Of a stretch of 64,000 nucleotides of DNA, positions 38,258 to 52,070 are shown in pieces. The stretch lies in NCBI GenBank assembly GCA_951813565.1, contig OX638351.1, positions 2,368,001-2,432,000 of the forward strand, written 5' to 3'. Positions within the stretch are counted from its first letter, which is position 1. Every line of letters begins with the position of its first letter. The stretch is from an uncultured Poribacteria bacterium (GTDB lineage Bacteria; Poribacteria; WGA-4E; WGA-3G). Position numbers and translations under genes: made by a program. The notes under the pieces are model-generated. The model ran no database searches, was not told where the DNA came from, and was given only the letters and a program-made list of their open reading frames with translations.

Positions 38258-39277
38258 ATGCAAACACCACGACACATTGACCAAATGGATGCCGATGACG
38301 TTGCTGCAATTGACGAACTACGCGACGTCTACGACCAACTAAAGAAAGCACTTGCCAAGATCATCATTGGTCAGGAGCAAGTCATTGAAAATTTATCGAT
38401 TTGTCTGTTTTCACAAGGGCACGCGCTATTGATGGGCGTCCCTGGCTTGGCAAAAACGCTTTTGGTGAGCCGGTTCGCTGAAACCATGGCGTTGTCGTTT
38501 AGCCGAATCCAATTCACACCCGATCTTATGCCGATGGACATCACCGGAACAGATATTCTTCAAGAAATACCGGGGGGTAGACGTGAGTTTGAGTTTGTAA
38601 AAGGCCCGCTGTTTGCCAACCTCATCCTCGCGGACGAGATTAACCGTGCCCCTTCAAAAACACAAGCAGCAATGCTTGAGGCAATGCAGGAATACAAGAT
38701 CACGGTAATCGGCAGGACCTACCAGTTAGCACCACCGTTCTTTGTATTAGCAACGCAAAACCCGATTGAGCAGGAAGGGACATATCCCTTACCAGAAGCA
38801 CAATTAGACCGATTCATGTTCAGAATTGAGGTAGACTATCCTGAGCGATCTGAAGAAATCGAAATCGCCCGAACGACAACTGGCATGTCCCTTCCAACGT
38901 TAGAACACGTTTTGACGGGTGATCGTGTCATAGCATTCCAAAACCTTGTTCGGCGCGTTCCAGTATCTGAACACATCTATGAATTCGCTGTTGACTTAGC
39001 ACGCAGCACACGACCGAAAGGCGACGCAGCACCTGATTGGCTTAAACCCCTTGTCGCTTGGGGTGCTGGCCCACGGGCTGTCCAATACTTAATTCTCGGT
39101 GCTAAGGCACGCGCTGCACTCAGCGGTAGTTATATGGCTCGACTTGAAGATGTGGTCGCTGTAGCAAACCCTGTCCTTGCGCACCGTGTCATCACATCGT
39201 TTGCTGCTGAGTCTGAAAACATTACCAGTCAAGATATCGTTGAACGTCTCGTAGGAGAACTCTCCGAACAAGGGTAA
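38258..39277 (+). CDS. moxR: MoxR-family AAA+ ATPase
   Basis: GVPGLAKT, RIQFTPDLMP.DITG, LADEINRA, ATQNPIEQEGTYPLPEAQLDRF. Confidence 0.96.
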   Translation: MQTPRHIDQMDADDVAAIDELRDVYDQLKKALAKIIIGQEQVIENLSICLFSQGHALLMGVPGLAKTLLVSRFAETMALSFSRIQFTPDLMPMDITGTDILQEIPGGRREFEFVKGPLFANLILADEINRAPSKTQAAMLEAMQEYKITVIGRTYQLAPPFFVLATQNPIEQEGTYPLPEAQLDRFMFRIEVDYPERSEEIEIARTTTGMSLPTLEHVLTGDRVIAFQNLVRRVPVSEHIYEFAVDLARSTRPKGDAAPDWLKPLVAWGAGPRAVQYLILGAKARAALSGSYMARLEDVVAVANPVLAHRVITSFAAESENITSQDIVERLVGELSEQG

Positions 39278-39280
39278 AAT

Positions 39281-40186
39281 ATGGCACTGCAACTCAGACG
39301 AGATTATCTCAACCAGAAGGTTCTGGAACGGCTTTCAACGCTACAACTACATGCCCGGTTACCAATGATAGGAAGCGTATCCGGCAAACATCGCAGCCCG
39401 ATTCGCGGGTCAAGCCTTGAGTTCGCGGAGTATCGTAAGTATGTGCCGGGTGATGATACACGGCGGCTTGATTGGCGTGCTTATGCCCGAAATGACCGCT
39501 ATTATATCAAAGAATTTGAGGCAGATACGAACTTACGTATGTGCTTAATCGTTGATACCAGTGGCTCAATGGGATTCGCTTACAACGGGATGAGCAAACT
39601 TGACTATGCGCGCCGAATCGGTGGCACTTTAGCCTATATCGCAGCGCTTCAAGGTGATGCTGTCGGGCTCTACTGTGCAGGCACAAGGTTTCACAAAGAG
39701 ATTCCACCGAAGCGGAGCGCAACACACCTTAGTGCTGTCCTTGATGAACTCGGAGCAGTAGAACCATCAGGTGAAACAGGATTGGCAGACGTTCTTCACG
39801 AAACTGCTGAACGTGTCCCGCAGAGAGCACTAATTATTATCATTTCAGATCTGTTTATTGACCCAGAAGTAGCGCGGAACTGTTTTGAACATTTACGATT
39901 CCGTAAACACGATGTCGCTGTGTTCCATCTTATGGAGCAGAATGAATTGGATTTTGAATTTGATCGTCCAATGCGCTTTGTTGATATGGAGGGTGGTGAA
40001 CCCATATTAGCAGACCCAATCATTATTGGTGAGCAGTACCGCCGTGCCTTGGAAGTATATCTTGAAAGCATGAATGAAGTTATACAAGACACCGAAATTG
40101 ACTATCATCGTGTACAAATTCAGGAAGACTATGGCGACGTATTGGCAAAGTTCTTATTAGGGCGCACACCTAAAAAACGTGCGTGA
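39281..40186 (+). CDS. DUF58 (vWA-like) protein
   Basis: G.HRS...GSSLEFAEYRKYVPGDD.RRLDW, DTSGSM, IISD. Confidence 0.94.
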   Translation: MALQLRRDYLNQKVLERLSTLQLHARLPMIGSVSGKHRSPIRGSSLEFAEYRKYVPGDDTRRLDWRAYARNDRYYIKEFEADTNLRMCLIVDTSGSMGFAYNGMSKLDYARRIGGTLAYIAALQGDAVGLYCAGTRFHKEIPPKRSATHLSAVLDELGAVEPSGETGLADVLHETAERVPQRALIIIISDLFIDPEVARNCFEHLRFRKHDVAVFHLMEQNELDFEFDRPMRFVDMEGGEPILADPIIIGEQYRRALEVYLESMNEVIQDTEIDYHRVQIQEDYGDVLAKFLLGRTPKKRA

Positions 40187-40404: not shown

Positions 40405-42420
40405 ATGAATTTTCTACAACCTTTAGCATTAATAGCACTTCCTTTGATGTTGCTACCAGTCATTATTCACCTGATTAATCAGCAGCGCCACCGCACCGTG
40501 CCCTGGGCAGCGATGATGTTCCTAATGACAGCAAAACGCATGAGCAAAGGTATGGCACGTCTGCGTCATATTCTTATACTGCTAATGCGTACCCTTGCTA
40601 TCGCAGCGCTGATTTTCGCTATCAGTCGACCACTCTCTGGTGGATGGTTAGGAAGCATCGGATTGGCGAAACCTGATGTCACGATGGTTCTGCTTGACCG
40701 GTCTGCAAGCATGGAAACACAAAATCTGCAGGCTGGCGAGTCAAAAAGGTCCACAGCACTAAAAAGACTTGCACAGTTGCTGGAGCAAGGCGATTATGGG
40801 GCTCACCTGATTCTGATTGATAGTGCCACTGGACAATTACAGGAAATAGATTCACCGAAGGCATTATTGAGCCTACCCATGACTGAAGCGAGTGCTACAA
40901 GTGCGAATATTCCGGGCATGTTTGAATCTGCTTTAACCTATCTCAAAGCAAACAATTCGGGACGTGCAGACGTGTGGCTTTGCTCTGATCTCTACGAGAA
41001 CGATTGGGCTGTTGCCAGCGGACGTTGGGATGCAATCCGAGAAGAATTTGCGCAGTTAGAAGGTGTGCACCATTTCTTGCTTGCATATTCAGCGCCACCT
41101 TCAAATAACTTATCGGTGAGGGTGAAAAACGTACAACGGTGGCAACGAGGCAACGAAGCGGAACTCATTCTTGATGTATTGGTTAGAAATGAAGGCAGCG
41201 ATATAGGAACACGAGAAGTCCCGATTGAGTTTGAAGTCAACAACGTTCGCTCTGTGGTTGAAGTTGAACTTGACGCACGCGGCGCATCTTTGCAGGGACA
41301 TCGCATTCCTATTGATGGCACGCTCACTTCAGGATGGGGGTCTGTCGGGTTGCCGGGTGATGCTAATCCGTTGGACAATCGATTTTTCTTTGTGTTTTCA
41401 GAACCACCGGTGCGGAGGTCAGTTATCGTTAGTGATGATGCGAAAATTGGCGAAGCGTTTCGTCGTGCGCTCGCTATCCCGCCAGATGCCAGGCTTCAAC
41501 ATCAGGCGGATGTGATTCCCACGAGTCGCATTGGGGAGATTGATTGGGGAAGGATAGGGTTATTGGTTTGGCAAGCAGCTTTGCCGAATGGGTTGGTCGT
41601 GGAACAGATACAGAATTTTGTTAACAGTGGTCGTGTCGCTATCTTCTTTCCACCGAGTCAGAATGCTGGTGCCCAAATGTTCGACTCACGTTGGGACAAT
41701 TGGCAGACACCTGATGATGAACAAACTGCCCAGATTTCATGGTGGCGTGGTGATGCCGATCTGTTGGCGCATGTAGATAGCGGTAACCCCTTGCCTTTGA
41801 ATAAACTACGCACCTACCGGTATCGTGCTATTGAGAGCATGGGAACGCCGCTGGCAAGATTTGGTAGCGATGCGCCGCTGCTAACCCGTGTGAATACTGA
41901 CCGAGGCGCAGCGTATTTCTGTAGCACACTACCCACGGCACAATTCTCATCTCTTGAACGGGACGGCGTAGTGTTTTATGTGATGTTACAGCGTGCGTTA
42001 GCTGAAGGATGTCGCGCATTGACTGAAGCATCTCAACGCGATGCTGCGCCTGATGCACTTGCAGATCGTGGACAATGGGAGGCGGTTGCGCCTGAAGGAG
42101 ACGCAGTATCGCTTTCACAACGCGGATTACACGCTGGCGTCTATAGAGACGAGGCGTATTGGGTAGCTGTGAATCGCAGCCAAGCTGAAGATTCCGCTAA
42201 AGCAGCCCCTGAAGAAACTGTAGATGCGCTATTTAACGACTTATCTTATAGGCGAATAGACGTAGAAGTGGGAGACACCTCCTCTTTAGCCAATGAACTC
42301 TGGCGTATCTTCCTGATTGCGATGGCGATAGCACTTATTGTGGAAGCGGTGCTAAGTTTACCGAGTAAGAAAGCGGAAAGTAGTCCAGTTGGAGATTTTG
42401 CAACAGCAGAGAGAGACTGA
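40405..42420 (+). CDS. BatA-domain/vWA membrane protein
   Basis: MNFLQPLAL...PVIIHLIN...VPWAAMMFL; MIDAS motif DRSASM; C-terminal TM. Confidence 0.9.
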   Translation: MNFLQPLALIALPLMLLPVIIHLINQQRHRTVPWAAMMFLMTAKRMSKGMARLRHILILLMRTLAIAALIFAISRPLSGGWLGSIGLAKPDVTMVLLDRSASMETQNLQAGESKRSTALKRLAQLLEQGDYGAHLILIDSATGQLQEIDSPKALLSLPMTEASATSANIPGMFESALTYLKANNSGRADVWLCSDLYENDWAVASGRWDAIREEFAQLEGVHHFLLAYSAPPSNNLSVRVKNVQRWQRGNEAELILDVLVRNEGSDIGTREVPIEFEVNNVRSVVEVELDARGASLQGHRIPIDGTLTSGWGSVGLPGDANPLDNRFFFVFSEPPVRRSVIVSDDAKIGEAFRRALAIPPDARLQHQADVIPTSRIGEIDWGRIGLLVWQAALPNGLVVEQIQNFVNSGRVAIFFPPSQNAGAQMFDSRWDNWQTPDDEQTAQISWWRGDADLLAHVDSGNPLPLNKLRTYRYRAIESMGTPLARFGSDAPLLTRVNTDRGAAYFCSTLPTAQFSSLERDGVVFYVMLQRALAEGCRALTEASQRDAAPDALADRGQWEAVAPEGDAVSLSQRGLHAGVYRDEAYWVAVNRSQAEDSAKAAPEETVDALFNDLSYRRIDVEVGDTSSLANELWRIFLIAMAIALIVEAVLSLPSKKAESSPVGDFATAERD

Positions 42421-42441
42421 GGTATAATTTTGAATATGTCT

Positions 42442-42467
42442 TGTAGGAGTGCCCTCCAGGTCGCGAC
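42442..42467 (+). repeat. REP hairpin (GTAGGAG family)
   Basis: TGTAGGAGTGCCCTCCAGGTCGCGAC, similar to copies at 61923, 63917 and 31528. Confidence 0.6.
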
Positions 42468-42517
42468 CCTAATACATCATAATATTCAAACAGTGTTTAT
42501 TTCTTAAGGAGCATCAA

Positions 42518-45500
42518 ATGAATATTGATACAATTTTTACCGTAAAAAATGAACATCTTAGTCAATTTGATCAAAAAACATCAGTTGAGTTCTTTCAGCA
42601 GCTGCTTTGGGCAGAAGCACGAAGACTTGGAGTGGAAATTAGCAAGATTACTGTTTCTAGTTGGGTTAATAATCCTGACGGTGGCGTTGATGCTAATGTT
42701 GATGACGCTCAAATTAAAGGGGGACAAGGTTTAATTAGGCAGGGAAAAACAAGCTATCAGATTAAAGCTGGAGAAACGTTTAAACCGTGGCAAAAGTCAG
42801 TTATCAAGAAGGAACTTTTTGGCACGAAAACACCAAATAGGCAGAATCTTGGAGAGAGTATTCGAAAGTGCCTTGATGGTGATGGAGTCTACATTTTGGT
42901 ATGCACTGGAATTGATCCTACTGAATTCAATCGAGGAAAAATCATCCCGAACATCAAGGATTACCTAAAGCAGTGTGGTTATTCAAATCCCAAAGTAGAG
43001 GTGTTTACTCAGAATACTCTCAGAGGATTCCTTGAGGTGTTCCCATCATTAGCATTGTGGGTCAATGGGAATGATCGAGGATTTTTCCAAACCCATCAGA
43101 GTTGGTCTGAAGATGCGACTATGCGAGTTCCATTTTTCCCCGGCCAATCACAGAATAAATTAATTACTGAAATCCAAAAAGAATTGCGGGAAAAGCATAA
43201 CACAGTTCACGTGCGAGTGTTGGGGGAACCCGGTATTGGTAAAACGAAGCTCGTTTTAGAAGCAACGAAGGTTGATGATTTATCTCCACTTGTTGTTTAC
43301 TGTACTGCCTCTCAATTCTTAGATAGTGTTTTACTGAATGAAATTCTCCGAGACGATAACTCTTTCTCAGTTCTGCTAATAATAGATGAATGTAATCCCG
43401 ACAATAGATCATATTTCTGGAATAAACTGAAACATCGTGGTTCAAGGATTAAATTGATCACTATCTATAATGACTATGAGGAAAAATCTGGAGATATTAA
43501 CTACTATGATGCCCCACCGCTGGATAATGAACAGATTTGTAGCATTGTTCAGAGTTATACTAATATATCCAATGCTGATGCTAATAGATGGGCTGGACTC
43601 TGTAGCGGCTTACCAGAGGTTGCGCACATGATCGGTACGAATTTGAATTCTCATCAAGAAAATCTACTTGCTCCCCTGAGCACAGTCAATTTCTGGGAAC
43701 GATGTATTTTCGGAGGCGAGGACCCAACAATACCAGATGTAGCGGACCGTTGGCCGGTACTTCGTTATTTAGCACTCTTTAAACAATTTGGCTTTAAAGG
43801 TAATGTTTCCGAAGAATTCAGTGCAATTGCAGAAATTGTGGAGAATGCTTTCCCGTCGATTACTCAACAAAGATTCAAAAAAGTTGTTTTAGACCTGAAA
43901 AAACGTGGTACCCTAAAAGGTGACTATACACTCCGCATTACTCCAAAAGTCCTACATATCAAGTTATGGTTAGAGTGGTGGGAAAATTACTATGCTGAAG
44001 ATTCTGATCTTGTGGAGTTAACACGAGGCTTTACACCAAACTTGTTCGATTGGTTCTGTGAGATGTTTAAATATGCCGCTGAGTCGGAAGAAGCATCAAG
44101 GATTGTCAAGCAGCTCCTTGGACCACATGGGCCATTTCAATCAGACACTTCGTTGAGAAATCTTAATAACAAATTCTTTTTAGCACTAACTGAAGCAGAT
44201 CCAGAATCTGCTTTAAAGTGCTTAGTGCGAACAATCGGTACTTGGGATAAAGAAACTCTTTTAGAATTTACTAATGGTCGGAGATCGGTGATATGGGCTC
44301 TTGAAAAAATTGCTATATGGCGAAAATTGTTCCCTAATGCAGCAAGGTTGCTCCTTGCACTCGGTGAAGCAGAAAATGAAAGAACATCGAACAATGCAAG
44401 TGGAGTATTTGCTGAACTTTTCTCATTAGGACCAGGTGCGGTAGCTCCTACAGAAGCATCCCCAGTAGAACGTTTACTTGTCTTAAAGGAAGCATTTGAG
44501 TCTGAATCAAAAGAACGGCGAAGCTTGGCATTAAAAGCATGCGATAAAGGTTTAATATCCGGCCATTTCTCACGGATGTCAGGAGCAGAATATCAAGGAT
44601 TACGCAAGGAACCAAATTTTTGGTTTCCCAAAACACACGCTCAGTGGTCGAAAGCCTACCGTTCCGTATGGCAACTCTTGTTTGAGCAATTGGAACATTT
44701 ACCTGAAGATGAACGTAAACAGGCTGCGGGGATTCTGCTTGGTCATGCAGGATCACTTGCAAGAAAGCACAATTTAGGCAATATGGTTGTAAACACAGTC
44801 GAAACAATTAGTAAAAATGGATATGTAAACGAAAAACAGATTATTGAGACAATTAGCCGAATTTTGTTTCATGATGACTCCTATGTTGAAAACAAAGGAC
44901 TACCAAAGAAAATTAGACAGCGTTTTGAAAAACTTCAAGACGAATTGATTGGTTCCGACTTTTCTTCGTTAATGCAACGCTATGTTGGGATGGATATGGT
45001 TGAAGACCTTCTTATTGAAGACAGAGATAAAGTTGATAAAGTTAAACCCTACCTTGAATCACTAGCGAAGCAATCTGTAGATAATCCTGCACTTTTGAAA
45101 TCGGAATTATCATGGCTTGTGACTACCGAAGCAAAGAATGGAAACAAGTTTGGGTATGAACTTGGACAGAGAGATAAATCGCTTTCACTTCTACCAATGC
45201 TTCTTGATGCCCAACGAAACACAAAGGATAATATCAGCACTTATTTTTTGGGTGGTTATTTCCATACGATCTTTGATACTGATTCAGCACTATGGGAGCA
45301 ACAACTTGACGTACTCTGTGAAGATATCACTCTTAACACAATAGTACCATCGCTTACGCACTATTCGGGTCTGACTGATCAAGCAGGACTTCGAATTCTC
45401 AACATGGCAAAAAACGATATTATTAATATCTACGATTTTGAATTATTCAAATACCAAAATGCAATTACCAGTCTATCCGAAAATATTTTTGAAGCTTGGA

Positions 45501-46336
45501 TAGAATTTTTATTGGATATTACCGACAGGTCAGCTGTACATATTGCATTGAAGTTATTCCACAGTTACTACATTTTTCGAAAACCAGAATCTACTTTACC
45601 AAATGAACTCACATTCCGCCTCCTTTCACATCCAGAATTATTTAAAGAATCCGATAATTATCAGTATGATACAATGACAGATTTTTATTGGACAGAAACA
45701 GCGAAAGGTTTTCTAAACCTCTATCCAAAAAAGGCTTTAGAACTAGTACAATGCATGCTGGTGCCCTTTGGTAGCGACAGAACAATCTTTGATTCTTTCT
45801 CACAAAGTTGCTCGTTTCTCACTGAAACAACTAAAAAATATCCCGCGGAGGTTTGGGAGTACGTTAGTGAATATTTGGACAGTCGTGATAATTTTTCGAG
45901 AACTATATCTTTAGCAAATTGGCTTAGAGAAGCAGATCTTTCGGAAACAGAAAAAGAAAAAGGAGCATTAACCTTAATTCCACGCGAAAAAATATGGGAA
46001 TGGGTTGATCAAGACGTGGAAAATCGCGCGTGGTATCTTGCCAGTGAATTTGTTCCAAAGACCCTTTTAATAGAAGACTGGTGTGGTTCGTTAGCCCGTG
46101 ATCTTCTTGTTAGGTATGGAGATCAAGAAGATGTTAGAAGCACATTGATATCAAATTATTCAACCGAAGGATTCTGGGGACCTGCTAGTTTATACTATGG
46201 AGAGAAACTACAAAAATTAGTTGACATCCAGAACAACGATAATGACGAAAAAGTCAATTATTGGATTAACGAATTTGTACCCTTTCTTGAAGAGCAAATT
46301 GAACATTCAAAGATACGCGAAGAAAGAATGTCTTAA
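42518..46336 (+). CDS. Putative nuclease-STAND NTPase (Avs/NLR-like) protein
   Basis: N-terminal PDGGVDA...YQIK; Walker A GEPGIGKT; Walker B LLIIDEC; GxP motif CSGLP; long helical C-terminus; visibly AT-richer than flanks. Confidence 0.75.
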   Translation: MNIDTIFTVKNEHLSQFDQKTSVEFFQQLLWAEARRLGVEISKITVSSWVNNPDGGVDANVDDAQIKGGQGLIRQGKTSYQIKAGETFKPWQKSVIKKELFGTKTPNRQNLGESIRKCLDGDGVYILVCTGIDPTEFNRGKIIPNIKDYLKQCGYSNPKVEVFTQNTLRGFLEVFPSLALWVNGNDRGFFQTHQSWSEDATMRVPFFPGQSQNKLITEIQKELREKHNTVHVRVLGEPGIGKTKLVLEATKVDDLSPLVVYCTASQFLDSVLLNEILRDDNSFSVLLIIDECNPDNRSYFWNKLKHRGSRIKLITIYNDYEEKSGDINYYDAPPLDNEQICSIVQSYTNISNADANRWAGLCSGLPEVAHMIGTNLNSHQENLLAPLSTVNFWERCIFGGEDPTIPDVADRWPVLRYLALFKQFGFKGNVSEEFSAIAEIVENAFPSITQQRFKKVVLDLKKRGTLKGDYTLRITPKVLHIKLWLEWWENYYAEDSDLVELTRGFTPNLFDWFCEMFKYAAESEEASRIVKQLLGPHGPFQSDTSLRNLNNKFFLALTEADPESALKCLVRTIGTWDKETLLEFTNGRRSVIWALEKIAIWRKLFPNAARLLLALGEAENERTSNNASGVFAELFSLGPGAVAPTEASPVERLLVLKEAFESESKERRSLALKACDKGLISGHFSRMSGAEYQGLRKEPNFWFPKTHAQWSKAYRSVWQLLFEQLEHLPEDERKQAAGILLGHAGSLARKHNLGNMVVNTVETISKNGYVNEKQIIETISRILFHDDSYVENKGLPKKIRQRFEKLQDELIGSDFSSLMQRYVGMDMVEDLLIEDRDKVDKVKPYLESLAKQSVDNPALLKSELSWLVTTEAKNGNKFGYELGQRDKSLSLLPMLLDAQRNTKDNISTYFLGGYFHTIFDTDSALWEQQLDVLCEDITLNTIVPSLTHYSGLTDQAGLRILNMAKNDIINIYDFELFKYQNAITSLSENIFEAWIEFLLDITDRSAVHIALKLFHSYYIFRKPESTLPNELTFRLLSHPELFKESDNYQYDTMTDFYWTETAKGFLNLYPKKALELVQCMLVPFGSDRTIFDSFSQSCSFLTETTKKYPAEVWEYVSEYLDSRDNFSRTISLANWLREADLSETEKEKGALTLIPREKIWEWVDQDVENRAWYLASEFVPKTLLIEDWCGSLARDLLVRYGDQEDVRSTLISNYSTEGFWGPASLYYGEKLQKLVDIQNNDNDEKVNYWINEFVPFLEEQIEHSKIREERMS

Positions 46337-46360: not shown

Positions 46361-48568
46361 ATGCAAGACCAGCAAGGACACCTTGAATTCTTCTCAAACG
46401 GTTCCATCATAATTTTGGGACTGATTATCGTTGCTGTAACCGGCGTCCTATGCTGGTTTGCATGGCACCGCAGCGGTTACCGTACACGTATCGGATGGCT
46501 TGAGTTGCTGCGTTTTGTGCTTGTTTGCCTTGTAATTGTCACGCTAAACCAACCTGAATGGTTAGAATCACAGCCGCCGGAACAACGTTCTACACTTGCT
46601 ATCCTGTGGGACAAATCTAATAGCATGCTAACACGGGATATAATTGACGATCAAGATGCTGCTGCCAAACGTAAAAACCGCGCTGAAACGATACAGCCAC
46701 TAATGTCCGAAGATGTTTGGAAATCTGAAGAAGATACTGAACTCAACGTAGTATTCGAGCCGTTCTCTTCACTGTTAGACCCCGCAGAAGAAGCAACAGA
46801 TATAAACGCAGGGCTATCGCATGTTTTGGACAATCATTCCAATCTTCGCGGCGTAGTGCTACTATCAGATGGTGATTGGAATATTGGGGACTCACCCGTA
46901 AAGGCTGCGACACGGTTCCACATGAAAGGAGTCCCTGTTTTCACCGTGGGAGTCGGCAGTGCAGTCCCATTGCCCGACCTTGAGTTAGTGAGTATAGATG
47001 CCCCAACCTATGGCGTAACAAAAAAGCAGCTGCGTATTCCGTTTGTCGTCCGAAACACCTTGGGGCAGGACAGAGACGTGCATCTAACGTTAAGCATTGA
47101 TGATGTGCCAACGACAACCAAAACTATCACTGTTTCCGCTATGGGGCAAGCACAAGATAATATGGCATGGACGCCACAAGAAACAGGTAATTACGACCTT
47201 ACCCTACGGATTGCGAAGGATATTCGAGAGTTGATTCCCGAAAATAATGAACTCTCTGCCCCCATATCTATACGGAAGGAGCAGTTGAAAGTACTTGTTA
47301 TTGAATCTTATCCGCGTTGGGAATATCGATACCTACGTAATGCCTTGGAACGCGATGCAGGTGTTGATGTAACATGCCTGCTTTTTCACCCTAAGTTGCC
47401 GCAGTCTGGCGGTGGACGCGGCTATATTAAACGTTTCCCCGATGCCAGAGAACTTAGCAAATTTGATGTGGTGTTTCTGGGAGATGTAGGTATAGCACCT
47501 GAACAGTTGACGGTCGAACAAGCACAGGATTTACGACAACTCGTCAGCGCACAAGCCGCTGGGATTGTCTTTCTACCGGGACGTTCCGGCGCACAAGATT
47601 CTTTGACCACTGGTCCGCTTGCTGACCTTTATCCTGTTGTCTTGGACCCCGCAACACCGAACGGTGTCGGTTCAAGTGTCCAAGGCTATTTCTCGCTCAC
47701 CGAACCCGGACAACGCAGCTTGCTAACCCGTCTCGGAGATACCGACCTTGACAACAGCGACGTGTGGCGCGCATTACCAGGTTTTTTCTGGTACGCTGGT
47801 GTCAAACGAGCCAAGGCAGGCACAGAAATCTTAGCAGTGCACGATCAGGTTGCTACAGTTTCTGGACGGGTGCCGCTCATCGTCACAAAAACGTATGGCA
47901 CTGGTAAAGTGCTGTTTATGGGAACAGACAGCGCATGGCGTTGGCGTCATGGTGTGGAAGACAGATACCATTACCGCTTCTGGAGTCAAGTTGCACGTTG
48001 GATGGCGTATCGACGCCAGATGGCGCAAGGCGAATCCATACGATTGTTCTACTCACCAGATAGACCACACGTTGATGATGTCCTAACGTTAAATGTTAAT
48101 GTGATGGACAACGTAGGCGGTCCGTTGGATAGAGGCACTGTTACTGTGCAAGCGATTGCGCCCTCAGGTAAAACGGAGACAATCCGACTTCAACCGGGCA
48201 TAGAAGATGCATTGGGGTTGTTCGTCGGGACGTTTGTGCCGAAAGAGTCAGGCAACTATCGCCTCGTTGCGACCAGTAGCGAAACGGGCGCATCAGTTCA
48301 AACAGATCTGTCAGTGCAAGGCTTGAATCGGGAGCAACAAGGGCGTCTCGCGCGTTTTGATGTCCTTGAGGAAATCGCGAAAATTACCAACGGAAAATTG
48401 GTGCCGATTGCTGAAGTGAGCACGTTGTTAGACCATCTGGCAGCCCTACCAGAGCCAGAACCGATTGTCAAACGAACGCGAATCTGGGCGCATCCGCTTT
48501 GGGGCGGATTGATTATCTTACTGCTTGGGTTATTCTGGGTTGCACGCAAAATGGCAGGTACGATATGA
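46361..48568 (+). CDS. Membrane protein with vWA and glutamine-amidotransferase-like domains (MoxR cluster)
   Basis: N-terminal TMs, DKSNSM, LLSDG, PRWEYRYLRNALERD, G.GKVLFMGTDSAWRWR. Confidence 0.85.
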   Translation: MQDQQGHLEFFSNGSIIILGLIIVAVTGVLCWFAWHRSGYRTRIGWLELLRFVLVCLVIVTLNQPEWLESQPPEQRSTLAILWDKSNSMLTRDIIDDQDAAAKRKNRAETIQPLMSEDVWKSEEDTELNVVFEPFSSLLDPAEEATDINAGLSHVLDNHSNLRGVVLLSDGDWNIGDSPVKAATRFHMKGVPVFTVGVGSAVPLPDLELVSIDAPTYGVTKKQLRIPFVVRNTLGQDRDVHLTLSIDDVPTTTKTITVSAMGQAQDNMAWTPQETGNYDLTLRIAKDIRELIPENNELSAPISIRKEQLKVLVIESYPRWEYRYLRNALERDAGVDVTCLLFHPKLPQSGGGRGYIKRFPDARELSKFDVVFLGDVGIAPEQLTVEQAQDLRQLVSAQAAGIVFLPGRSGAQDSLTTGPLADLYPVVLDPATPNGVGSSVQGYFSLTEPGQRSLLTRLGDTDLDNSDVWRALPGFFWYAGVKRAKAGTEILAVHDQVATVSGRVPLIVTKTYGTGKVLFMGTDSAWRWRHGVEDRYHYRFWSQVARWMAYRRQMAQGESIRLFYSPDRPHVDDVLTLNVNVMDNVGGPLDRGTVTVQAIAPSGKTETIRLQPGIEDALGLFVGTFVPKESGNYRLVATSSETGASVQTDLSVQGLNREQQGRLARFDVLEEIAKITNGKLVPIAEVSTLLDHLAALPEPEPIVKRTRIWAHPLWGGLIILLLGLFWVARKMAGTI

Positions 48569-48910: not shown

Positions 48911-50203
48911 ATGAAACGTTTTGATTTTACCGCTATAGACATTTTTGTTGTGAGTGTTATGCTTTTGCTGATGACATCTCTCCCAAGCATTGCTGCAACT
49001 TTTTCTGGCAAAGTCGTTGATAATGAGGGGAAACCTGTTCCGGGCATTGTTGTGACACTTCAGTCATTCAAAGGCACTTCATTTCCAGACCAATGGAGGT
49101 CCGATCCTGAACCAGCGTTCCCTCCTCCAGTACCAAGTGAGACAGATAACACCGGCGCTTTCTCTATTACGAATATCACGTCACCCTCCGTAAATAAATT
49201 AGTCTTGTTTCCTGAAGGACACGAACCCGATTATGAAGTTATCGGTCTTGAAATTGAGGGCATCCCGTTCTATGTTGACCTGCATATCTTTGATTTTGAT
49301 TTCGGTAGTTTTGCATTTCTGATTGCGCCGGATGCGGATATTACGGACGTAAAAGTTACTGTTCGTCTTCGTATGCGGATCCGTGGACAGGTGCTTTCCC
49401 CAGACGGCACCCCACTTCGGAACGTTCGAGTGAGTTACAAGGTAAAATCACGTTATGTAGGCGGCGGCACCGGTAGTGAAAGCGGATCAATGAAGCTTGA
49501 TGCGGAGGGGCACTTTGTGAGATATGTAGATGAAGCGGGCCATTATACCGTCTCTGTAACATATCAGGGGCAGTCCGCAACGTCTAAGGAGATTTTGCTT
49601 GAAGATAGGCAACGTCTTGATGGATTGGTCTTGACGCTAAAGGGTGAACAGGAAACGCCTACAGAAGTCCTAACGCCACTGAAACCGCCTGTCCCTAAAC
49701 AACAAGCAGCACCAAGGCGGTTCGATCCTGAACGTCAAAGAGCTGCGGTACAGCGGCGTCGCGCTGGCGTATGGATAGTGAATCCTGAAACCCGTCACGC
49801 CTACAAACGAATTTATTGCGAAACCCATGAGGAAGCACAAGAACAAGCGACCGCCGAAGACGCGCATCTCGTTGCCATCAATAGCAAAGCCGAACAGGAC
49901 TGGCTCCGTGCCGTTTTTAGAAAACAAAATTTTTGGATCGGATTGACAGATGGCGAAAAAGAAGGTGAACGGCACTGGGATAACGGTGAACCTGTTACCT
50001 ACACCAATTGGAATTCGCCAGTGCAAACTTCGGTAGGTCAAGACAACGATGCGAACAAGAATTATACTATGCTCATCGGTTTTACAGGAAAGTGGCAGGC
50101 AGTACGCGAAGGCAGTCCCATCGCACGCATGGCAAAAATAGCGATTCTGGAAAAAGAAATGCTCATCGTTGATAACCCGAAGCCTAAAGATGAAAAACGT
50201 TGA
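48911..50203 (+). CDS. Secreted protein: carboxypeptidase-regulatory-like Ig domains plus C-type lectin domain
   Basis: SGKVVDNEGKPVPG; AHLVAINSKAEQDWL, FWIGLTD..KEG...WDNGEPVTYTNW. Confidence 0.85.
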   Translation: MKRFDFTAIDIFVVSVMLLLMTSLPSIAATFSGKVVDNEGKPVPGIVVTLQSFKGTSFPDQWRSDPEPAFPPPVPSETDNTGAFSITNITSPSVNKLVLFPEGHEPDYEVIGLEIEGIPFYVDLHIFDFDFGSFAFLIAPDADITDVKVTVRLRMRIRGQVLSPDGTPLRNVRVSYKVKSRYVGGGTGSESGSMKLDAEGHFVRYVDEAGHYTVSVTYQGQSATSKEILLEDRQRLDGLVLTLKGEQETPTEVLTPLKPPVPKQQAAPRRFDPERQRAAVQRRRAGVWIVNPETRHAYKRIYCETHEEAQEQATAEDAHLVAINSKAEQDWLRAVFRKQNFWIGLTDGEKEGERHWDNGEPVTYTNWNSPVQTSVGQDNDANKNYTMLIGFTGKWQAVREGSPIARMAKIAILEKEMLIVDNPKPKDEKR

Positions 50204-50231
50204 ACGCATTAACGTACAAGGAGGTATTAAC

Positions 50232-52070
50232 ATGACGCGTATTATCACAACACACAAACTCGTAGTGTTAGGGGTTTTCCTTTTGTTTGCTGCAACGACT
50301 TTCGCAGCGGAAGAAGTGCCTATAAAACAAGCGTTGAGCAGCTTGTCGGGCAAAGTTGTTGACACAGCGGGGAAACCTGTTCCTGAATTCACGTTCGTTC
50401 TTCAACCGATGCTTGAATTTGATGAACATCTCGTGCCAGCAGATGAGTTTCAAGATTTACCTGAGGGGATGGAAGGTCCAGGGAAACCTCCCGCCATATC
50501 TAAGGTGCAGACTGATTCCGAAGGCACTTTCAAGGTTACCGAACTTCAGCCAGGGTTTTTCCAAATCAACGTTCATTACGATCCGATGCTGGATGCATTT
50601 GACCTATTTGACCCTGAAAATCCGCCGGAAGACGGTGAAATGCCCCCCGAAATGATTCAGAAATTGATGCAGCTTGAGAACCTTGAACCAGCAAAAAAAC
50701 TTATCTCCATTCAATTCGGAAATGTCACCTTTTTACAAAATACAGAGGAACACGACTTCTCTGAAAGGATCACGTTCGCGCTGAAACCGGGTGTGACCGT
50801 TGAAAACGTCAAAATCACAGTCAAGTCGCGCTTGCGGATTAGCGGCCGCATTGTTTACGCCGATGGCACCCCGCTCAAGAACGCGGAAGTAGACCTTGAC
50901 ATACAACATTCAGATGAACGAGGTAGTGACACCTATGGAACCGGCGTTTTTACCGATGCAGATGGGGACTTTACAACATATCAGGATGAACCGGGATATT
51001 ACACGCTTGGTGCTAAATATAAACATTTGACAGCAGGAATAGGCCCTTTTTTAATTAACAATAAGGTGACACCTGATAAACTGGTCTTAAAACTGGATGG
51101 TACCAAAGTTGATATGGTTAAACCACGCCATCCTGATAATCCGCTGGCAAATGATGCTGAAGTTCGCCTTGCTCGCGCGCGATTAGAGGCGCAAAGTGTC
51201 TGGATCGCTAATCCGACGAATGGGCACGCTTACAAAATAATTTCGTGTAGAGATTGGCACGATGCACACCAGCAGGCTATTAGAGAAGAAGCGCATCTCG
51301 TTGCTATCAACGATGAAGCTGAACAGCATTGGCTTGAAGGTGTTTTTGATGACCGATCTTTTTGGTGGATTGGACTAACGGATATGGAAAAAGAGGGGGA
51401 ATGGCAATGGGACGGTAGTGAACCTGTCACGTACACAAACTGGACAACTTTTGAAATCTTTCCCGACAGACTGCCGGACACCCAAAAGGATTACGTTGTA
51501 GTCACACCTCGAGATGGTAGTTGGCAAACTGCTGGTCCTGGGAGTCCACTTTGGCGCATAGCACGACACGCAGTTATTGAAAAAGATGGGTTGCTTTCTA
51601 CAATACCTGCTGAGGCAAAAGATATGGATTTAGACATTGATCCTACTGTCGAATCACCCTTCGGTTTCGGTCCGTATCCACCGATTCCCGACACGTGGCC
51701 AGCTGATGTTGAATATTGGCCCTGTCAATCCGCAGAATTAGAACTAATGCAACGCGTGCGGATAAAACTTGAATCAGAGGGGAAAAATATATCAGGAATG
51801 TCAATGCAAAAGGGATTGGTATATCCAAATTTTCCCGACACTGTTTATGTTGAATGGGCTGAATCTGGCGAATATCTGTCCAGATTCAGTGGAGACCCAA
51901 AGACAAGCCAACGGCTACGAGCCATCATCAAAGCAAAAATGGAACAAGGTAAACCTTTTACGAAAGAGGATGTGCCGGATGACATCAAACTGGTACCTTA
52001 TGATGAGGGAGGAATTGATCCATACCAATTCTTAGGTTTACAAAGAAATGATGAGTCTGAGGAAAAGTAG
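50232..52070 (+). CDS. Paralogous secreted Ig-like plus C-type lectin protein with extra C-terminal domain
   Basis: GGAGG RBS before ATG 50232; SGKVVDTAGKPVP; AHLVAINDEAEQHWL, WWIGLTD..KEGEWQW. Confidence 0.85.
   Translation: MTRIITTHKLVVLGVFLLFAATTFAAEEVPIKQALSSLSGKVVDTAGKPVPEFTFVLQPMLEFDEHLVPADEFQDLPEGMEGPGKPPAISKVQTDSEGTFKVTELQPGFFQINVHYDPMLDAFDLFDPENPPEDGEMPPEMIQKLMQLENLEPAKKLISIQFGNVTFLQNTEEHDFSERITFALKPGVTVENVKITVKSRLRISGRIVYADGTPLKNAEVDLDIQHSDERGSDTYGTGVFTDADGDFTTYQDEPGYYTLGAKYKHLTAGIGPFLINNKVTPDKLVLKLDGTKVDMVKPRHPDNPLANDAEVRLARARLEAQSVWIANPTNGHAYKIISCRDWHDAHQQAIREEAHLVAINDEAEQHWLEGVFDDRSFWWIGLTDMEKEGEWQWDGSEPVTYTNWTTFEIFPDRLPDTQKDYVVVTPRDGSWQTAGPGSPLWRIARHAVIEKDGLLSTIPAEAKDMDLDIDPTVESPFGFGPYPPIPDTWPADVEYWPCQSAELELMQRVRIKLESEGKNISGMSMQKGLVYPNFPDTVYVEWAESGEYLSRFSGDPKTSQRLRAIIKAKMEQGKPFTKEDVPDDIKLVPYDEGGIDPYQFLGLQRNDESEEK

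Follow-up and report, generated by a model that had tools for sequence, protein, structure and literature searches.

A putative nuclease-STAND receptor of the wider Avs8 lineage in a variable operon slot of sponge Poribacteria

The receptor gene and its predicted domains

The gene described here is found in a stretch of 64,000 nucleotides from an uncultured Poribacteria bacterium (NCBI GenBank assembly GCA_951813565.1, contig OX638351.1, positions 2,368,001 to 2,432,000 of the forward strand), referred to as the window. It is located at 42518-46336 on the + strand, as are all window features given below, and encodes a protein of 1272 amino acids (aa) with an ATG start and no internal stop, in which a nuclease is followed by a STAND (signal transduction ATPase with numerous domains) module and a helical sensor, i.e., an Avs8-like arrangement. 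The predicted nuclease (~aa 1-185; 42518-43072) is of the Mrr-type PD-(D/Q)xK class and harbors the motif D54-G-G-V-D58...Q81-I-K83. The STAND module (~aa 200-491; 43115-43990) is composed of a nucleotide-binding domain (NBD) and two segments, which we take to be helical domain 1 (HD1) and the winged-helix domain (WHD), and contains Walker A (G236-T243, GEPGIGKT), Walker B (LLIID290E, i.e., D290-E291) and GxP (G364-x-P366) motifs. The remaining part (~aa 492-1272; 43991-46333) is an alpha-solenoid sensor with homology to the Avs8A sensor across aa 490-1000. All elements of the tripartite protein described in the original prediction, which was made from the DNA sequence alone, are thus present. 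In an alignment of 112 family members, all 112 have the same residue at D54, G56, D58, Q81, K83, G239, G241, K242 and D290.

A structural model of aa 1-500 (mean predicted local distance difference test, pLDDT, 93) matches Apaf-1, plant NLRs, CED-4, Avs4 (PDB 8dgf, E 2e-8) and Avs3 (PDB 8dgc, E 8e-8) in Foldseek searches, and the STAND module superimposes on WRR4A (Z 18.1, root-mean-square deviation (rmsd) 4.2, 264 residues aligned) and PAB2304 (Z 17.6, rmsd 3.4, 257 aligned). The C-terminus, earlier described as about 800 aa of helices, is modelled as an all-helical solenoid (aa 491-1272, pLDDT 90.6). The structural matches listed for this sensor model are HEAT/ARM solenoids of a generic kind, the best at Z 11.5 (rmsd 4.4, 209 aligned), and they neither support nor exclude any family. 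Taken together, the hallmarks of a STAND NTPase are found, i.e., an NBD-HD1-WHD core with Walker A/B and GxP, an N-terminal effector and a helical sensor of at least 400 aa.

The gene is preceded by the Shine-Dalgarno sequence AAGGAG noted earlier (42506-42511, 6 nt upstream of the ATG) and, as also stated in the original prediction, by a repetitive extragenic palindrome (REP) of the GTAG family (42443-42467, two mismatches relative to the genome consensus). The genome contains this consensus 114 times exactly and 336 times in near form (<=3 mismatches), and 2 Mb of shuffled DNA contains no copy. Because a REP is present at just 3 of the 22 homologous junctions examined, a role as mobilising element is ruled out and its position here is incidental. 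No sense-strand sigma-70 promoter or terminator was found in 42200-42600, nor were terminal repeats that would flag a mobile element found around the gene. With a GC content of 38.7%, the gene lies below both the genome (43.1%) and the genes of the operon (47-50%); the claimed AT-richness is real yet modest, because 19 of 755 long open reading frames (ORFs) have an equal or lower GC content. The gene is single-copy in its own genome, and a viral copy was not found (viral contigs gave one weak 40-aa match). Among named homologs the nearest shares 72% identity with the receptor, and the best named genome loci are from Poribacteria. Named datasets that contain the window DNA are sponge metagenomes, with no RNA dataset among the matches listed.

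Homology to Avs8A

A PADLOC scan with 5,027 models, a check proposed in the original prediction, matched a single family, PD-Lambda-4_A (aa 6-999, E 2.2e-31; no other at E <= 1), and all 13 further family members that were scanned likewise matched this model best. PD-lambda-4A is now called Avs8A (10.1101/2025.07.02.662641). BLASTP against E. coli Avs8A (WP_000963924.1) gave 23% identity across 714 columns (E 1e-22), and hhalign of a 112-member family profile against the same protein gave a nearly full-length alignment (P=100, E 1e-46, 1,172 columns, 14-1244 vs 2-1246). A profile-profile alignment of the receptor family with Avs8A covered 1,194 columns.

Because the nuclease and NTPase modules are common to Avs families, slices of the profile were scored separately, against 13 Avs8A proteins, reversed Avs8A proteins and 4,489 genome ORFs. 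The slices covering the nuclease, the NTPase, aa 490-700 and aa 700-1000 each matched 13 of 13 Avs8A proteins and exceeded every control, with E-values to E. coli Avs8A of 1.2e-18, 5e-23, 7e-20 and 4e-13, respectively, and the sensor alone (profile of aa 490-1272) matched with E 7e-40. Residues Q81/K83 align with Q78/K80 of E. coli Avs8A, where the Q78A-K80A replacement abolishes capsid-triggered killing (PMC13581612). Features from the ESM Atlas for aa 1-190 tentatively indicate Mrr_cat (0.90). Scans of the receptor against Pfam, NCBIfam and PHROGs gave weak P-loop matches or none (in NCBIfam, EruA across the P-loop only, E 0.034), and PDB sequence searches returned no solved relative.

A gene for Avs8B has no significant match in the receptor's genome or in four relatives (best E 0.135), and among 71 loci it is present at one, the E. 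coli source locus of the query. Avs8B is dispensable for defence by Avs8A (10.1101/2025.07.02.662641) and is missing also beside two true PD-lambda-4A genes, and the solo state of the receptor is therefore unremarkable.

As judged from these alignments, the receptor is a divergent, full-length homolog of Avs8A and belongs to the wider Avs8 (PD-lambda-4A) lineage, and it is likely to fall within the more inclusive cluster of Avs8 sensors defined in PMC13581612. This assignment replaces the original proposal of a new system of unknown subtype, while the proposed effector-STAND-sensor anatomy and pattern-recognition role are supported by the homology to Avs8A and by the STAND fold matches.

Family distribution and gene neighbourhoods

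The receptor family comprises 1,058 clusters at 50% identity (E <= 1e-30), with members in cyanobacteria, haloarchaea, Nitrospirota, Acidobacteriota and Proteobacteria, and is patchy across phyla. Outside Poribacteria, all 114 neighbouring genes were scanned with PADLOC and 70 of them with Pfam; locus L100, which has no flank, was excluded. A clear defence gene was found within 5 kb at 5 of 13 non-Poribacteria loci (PD-T4-10B, Type I restriction-modification, Type IIG, an RT-Toprim gene and AbiE/NYN), and among the other loci one has a Schlafen-ATPase and one an integrase. Because this neighbour criterion is looser than that of DefenseFinder, no P-value is given for the defence association.

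A Haloarcula plasmid harbors a full-length archaeal homolog (30%; L005:7989-11766), annotated as two ORFs, beside a trio of SbcC/MukB-like genes. In one subclade (P0209, P0216, P0221, P0236, P0254, P0423, P0424 and many others) an XRE/HTH or MqsA-antitoxin-like domain precedes the nuclease, a fusion that suggests autoregulation.

Proposed mechanism and alternatives

The protein is very probably an Avs-type nuclease receptor. E. coli Avs8A binds monomers of HK97-fold capsid proteins directly, with KD values of 127 (lambda gpE) and 14 nM, its degradation of double-stranded (ds) DNA requires ligand, Mg and ATP, and nuclease mutants lose defence (10.1101/2025.07.02.662641); capsid proteins of HK97, T5 and lambda act as triggers (PMC13581612). 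Published demonstrations of capsid binding, activation of the DNase and defence concern E. coli Avs8A alone. Because all three modules are homologous to those of Avs8A, we infer a similar sequence of events for the receptor, and the ligand, oligomer state and activity given here are by analogy. At rest, the receptor would be an autoinhibited, nucleotide-bound STAND protein. Upon infection, the helical sensor would bind freshly synthesised HK97-fold major capsid protein in its monomeric form, leading to nucleotide exchange in the STAND module and oligomerisation, probably to a tetramer, which for Avs8A is a prediction (10.1101/2025.07.02.662641). The oligomer would bring the Mrr-type nuclease domains together, resulting in dsDNA degradation and abortive infection. 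We favor, with moderate confidence, a pattern-recognition receptor of the wider Avs8 lineage that acts against phages as a single gene, senses capsids, degrades DNA and aborts infection, and an HK97-fold major capsid protein is the probable trigger of a working allele. The Type IIG-like gene that shares the operon slot and the DarT-macrodomain fusions and GmrSD of the neighbouring slot (see below) are in line with a defence role. The terminase and portal suggested originally as ligands are less fitting, the ligand of Avs8A being the major capsid protein.

Several observations weigh against this interpretation. The receptor is just 18-23% identical to Avs8A, its PADLOC score is 106.5 bits, compared to 1,777-2,532 for true PD-Lambda-4_A members, i.e., it is not a member of Avs8 in the narrow, enterobacterial PADLOC sense, and the last 270 aa (aa 1000-1272) alone give no significant Avs8A match (best E 0.13). 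The sensor slices were compared with Avs8A proteins, and STAND sensors can change ligand. The receptor carries R367E together with Q467K, a minority switch allele (see below), and loss of the conserved arginine in R367E could weaken or change activation. Of the 13 non-Poribacteria loci, six have only housekeeping neighbours, and three contain split receptor copies. Finally, an HK97 capsid family was found in just 2 of 41 related genomes, and a matching phage is therefore barely documented.

On a same-genus contig, a prohead protease-major capsid fusion (phrog_617; L089:1489-3759, - strand) lies ahead of another capsid-like ORF, which contains an internal insertion (G024:C517); this pair is a candidate for the natural trigger.

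A different assignment within the same general class is that the protein is an Avs-type nuclease receptor belonging to a sister family, e.g., Avs11-24 or another sensor cluster, that recognises another phage ligand (portal adaptor, terminase, tail or replication protein). The low identity to Avs8A, the lack of a match for the distal sensor alone and the clear separation of the large family (1,058 clusters) from enterobacterial Avs8A are in line with this explanation, and the nuclease mutant of MsAvs12, a sensor of portal adaptor, is at Q81/K83, i.e., with numbering identical to that in the receptor (PMC13581612). However, this agreement in numbering is weak because the Q-x-K of the other listed Avs mutants ranges over positions 59-96, and the 120 relatives listed for a proteobacterial member of the family, most of them nameless, include no Moraxella name. 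Moreover, Avs families are defined by structurally distinct sensors (PMC13581612), whereas the receptor displays sensor homology to Avs8A across aa 490-1000 at near-equal length and register. A sister family with another ligand is therefore considered unlikely.

Mosaic alleles

Near-identical alleles of the receptor differ through swapped segments of the NTPase switch, with a recombination signal that the flanking genes do not show. Protein P0003 matches the receptor without a difference across aa 128-259 and differs at one of 642 positions across aa 631-1272, with about half of the residues matching between these regions; the longest identical run is 425, compared to a maximum of 83 in 500 shuffles. 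Protein P0021 is 72% identical overall, yet displays two differences in aa 233-359. The first variable block covers the linker to Walker A (aa ~203-246; 43126-43256), where runs X5 and X7 contain a diverged allele of the same length and run X8 has the same break and a cluster of single-nucleotide polymorphisms. The second block (aa ~262-623; 43303-44386) covers the C-terminal half of the NBD, HD1, WHD and the first sensor repeats, and is replaced in one X9 contig and in P0003.

Independent contigs, examined from 4 of the 15 runs containing the DNA and originating from three studies, confirm the mosaicism within the species. The X9 contig is near-exact at 42632-43302 and 44387-45771, with an equal-length, diverged middle at half the depth of its flanks, while X5 and X7 contain the middle segment of the receptor allele in the window together with a different 43126-43256 block. 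These differences between X5 and X9 therefore hold whatever the quality of the window assembly; the exact allele combination of the window was found end to end in none of the contigs examined. An incompatibility test on receptor DNA from nine genomes revealed strong local clustering (0.366 vs 0.462 +/- 0.003, 0 of 300 permutations), and no such clustering was seen in the flanks (vWA gene, 54/300; BatA gene, seven genomes, 297/300).

Clustering of 120 close homologs over aa 345-530 yielded, at an analyst-set threshold, five classes (60, 29, 15, 12 and 4 members) that are roughly 50-55% identical. The minority HD1-WHD class (43595-44137), characterized by GLP[G/E]VAH, K467 and H/R473 and by the lack of the R367/Q467 pair, comprises 12 of the 120, and residues 361-540 of the receptor are closest to its 11 other members, marked by L365, G367, K467 and H473. 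Among family members R367 is conserved in 105 of 111 and Q467 in 101 of 111, and both are invariant in 15 of 15 Avs8A proteins, as R380 and Q471. Joint replacement of R367 and Q467 constitutes one haplotype and is thus not independent covariation.

These replacements raise the question of whether the receptor belongs to an Avs8-like family but is itself an attenuated or inactive, decaying recombinant (S365L, R367E, Q467K, Y473R). Decay is common in the family, as seen from split copies (L111-L113, L005) and deletion scars (G002, G012, described below), and E367 is unique among the 120 close and 112 broad homologs. On the other hand, the reading frame is intact with all nuclease and Walker residues present, the 436 conserved columns include 14 at which the receptor deviates, within the range of its relatives (3-27), the L365/K467 class is shared with 11 other homologs, and contigs of three studies from 2016-2025 (X5, X7 and X8) retain the E367 codon. 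A decaying allele is thus improbable.

The swaps may be either selected or the outcome of plain recombination among old paralogs; the genes compared were the two flanking ones. Tentatively, we propose that sponge Poribacteria might maintain a selected, recombining allele series in which the nuclease and distal sensor are fixed, while cassettes of the switch and first repeats are exchanged between strains of one species, so that the swaps would retune the activation threshold or ligand range, or allow escape from phage inhibitors of the STAND core. If so, the GLP[G/E]-K467 class, which does not contain the Avs8A-invariant arginine, would use an altered switch. The alleles of plant NLRs offer a parallel to such a series. 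No description of intragenic mosaicism in Avs/STAND receptors was found in the literature searched, which did not cover subscription journals.

The host operon and its variable slots

The receptor gene is located in a MoxR-DUF58-BatA-vWA operon, which begins with a MoxR AAA+ ATPase gene (38258-39277) and a DUF58/vWA gene (39281-40186). The slot occupied by the receptor is flanked on the left by a BatA-domain gene (40405-42420) and on the right by a vWA/CARDB gene (46361-48568), which all 24 of the same-genus genomes searched contain. Receptor homologs are present in 12 of these 24 genomes. At the BatA|vWA junction, the receptor is found alone in five genomes and together with a Type IIG-like methyltransferase gene in two, i.e., it fills the slot in seven of the 24, while the Type IIG-like gene is alone in two; no ORF of at least 90 aa is present in 11, both genes are found behind vWA in two rearranged junctions, and in two the contig ends. 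The claim that the gene interrupts a conserved operon stands.

Two of the empty sites (G002, G012) carry deletion scars, in which the REP and the first ~13 codons are kept (81-83% DNA identity across 129-142 nt), and loss of the receptor by deletion therefore occurs. An earlier reading of the scars as joined 5' and 3' gene ends was dropped, as the 5' remnant alone aligns. Occupied slots are scattered across the vWA tree, ten slot-derived receptor copies form one supported clade, separate from paralogs elsewhere (in a quick tree with long outgroup branches), and the similarity of the distal-sensor DNA of slot copies equals that of the flanking genes. For these reasons, the receptor is an old slot resident rather than a recent arrival, and a fresh single insertion is ruled out by the scatter and the single clade. 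The patchy distribution across phyla and the AT-richness agree with the original suggestion of horizontal acquisition, but within the genus the receptor has long been settled in this variable slot. In summary, the receptor is a long-standing occupant of a recombination-prone operon slot, lost by deletion in some lineages. A functional, non-defence role as chaperone or regulator of the MoxR-vWA operon, as might be suggested by the co-oriented, tightly spaced position in 7 of 24 genomes, is highly improbable given that the slot is empty in 11 and holds a restriction-type gene alone in two, that paralogs are found elsewhere and non-Poribacteria homologs outside this operon, and that the nuclease site is invariant.

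The Type IIG-like N6-methyltransferase gene (916-983 aa) stands in the slot either instead of the receptor or ahead of it (L069:5130-8081, L070:8273-11023, L073:8069-11020, L077:9299-12250, L079:12469-15357; split in L080 and L099). A fixed two-gene module is ruled out as each gene is found alone, and no match to the Type IIG-like gene was found in the receptor's genome at E <= 1e-10. Behind receptor copies displaced from the BatA|vWA junction (L077 and L080, i.e., G015 and G009; L012) lies a degraded duplicate of the 5' end of vWA, which suggests movement through recombination at the vWA start. At the BatA|vWA junction of L060 and L071 a short remnant, MQDF(K/R)KLQVWEKS, is found, which resembles the start of four-helix-bundle (23S rRNA intervening-sequence) proteins and may stem from a third former slot occupant.

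A second variable slot of the operon (vWA|large-gene junction) is occupied in the window by two related tandem genes (48911-52070), the first of which scored as carboxypeptidase-regulatory plus C-type lectin; this pair is found at that slot in 1 of 26 relatives. In relatives this slot harbors DarT-macrodomain fusions, GmrSD and HSDR_N genes. In the fusions, a DarT toxin domain and a DarG-like macrodomain are joined in a single ORF of 389-421 aa (L064:3388-4557, -; L073:4498-5763, -; L062:15957-17156, +), with no match in the receptor's genome; ORFs of similar size are found in the second slot of about nine more relatives. In one lineage, a trypsin-PDZ (HtrA-like) gene (L074:13891-15255) is found at the DUF58|BatA junction, a third variable junction of the operon.

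Implications

The system type, Avs8, is known already; what is added is the receptor's divergent clade and the series of switch-region alleles. With this homology the known range of Avs8-type capsid sensors, so far Enterobacteriaceae, would be widened by a large clade with members in Poribacteria, cyanobacteria, haloarchaea and further phyla. Natural chimeras that differ in the switch region only constitute a set for locating the specificity for ligand or inhibitor, and they bear on the need for ATP hydrolysis in Avs8-type activation, a question left by 10.1101/2025.07.02.662641. The operon-junction slots are, in addition, a place to mine for Poribacteria defence genes.

Comparison with known systems

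The closest counterpart is Avs8A, with which the receptor shares the order of Mrr nuclease, STAND module and helical sensor, a similar length (1272 vs 1283 aa, collinear nearly throughout), the nuclease pair (Q81/K83, equivalent to Q78/K80), intact Walker A/B motifs and, as predicted for the receptor, action without a second gene. It differs from Avs8A in the identity of 18-23%, in the distal 270 aa, which are not alignable alone, in the lack of Avs8B, in having E367 and K467 where Avs8A has R380 and Q471, and in location, i.e., a Poribacteria operon slot with block-mosaic alleles rather than an enterobacterial island.

The nuclease-STAND-helical sensor plan is common also to Avs4 (8dgf) and Avs3 (8dgc), but the receptor has no PADLOC match to the Avs1-5 models, and Avs4 and Avs3 sense portal and terminase, unlike the capsid ligand proposed here. 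Profiles of bNACHT and other STAND systems in PADLOC 2.0 have no match in the receptor. Avs7 and Avs10 recognise the HK97-fold major capsid protein, i.e., the ligand class proposed for the receptor, but their sensor architectures differ (PMC13581612), and the receptor has no match to the solved Avs7 sequence in the PDB. The slot itself is similar to core defence hotspots, in which variable defence cargo resides between conserved chromosomal genes, but the receptor slots hold single genes, lie inside one operon and display exchange of intragenic segments, in contrast to the hotspots (PMC10250203).

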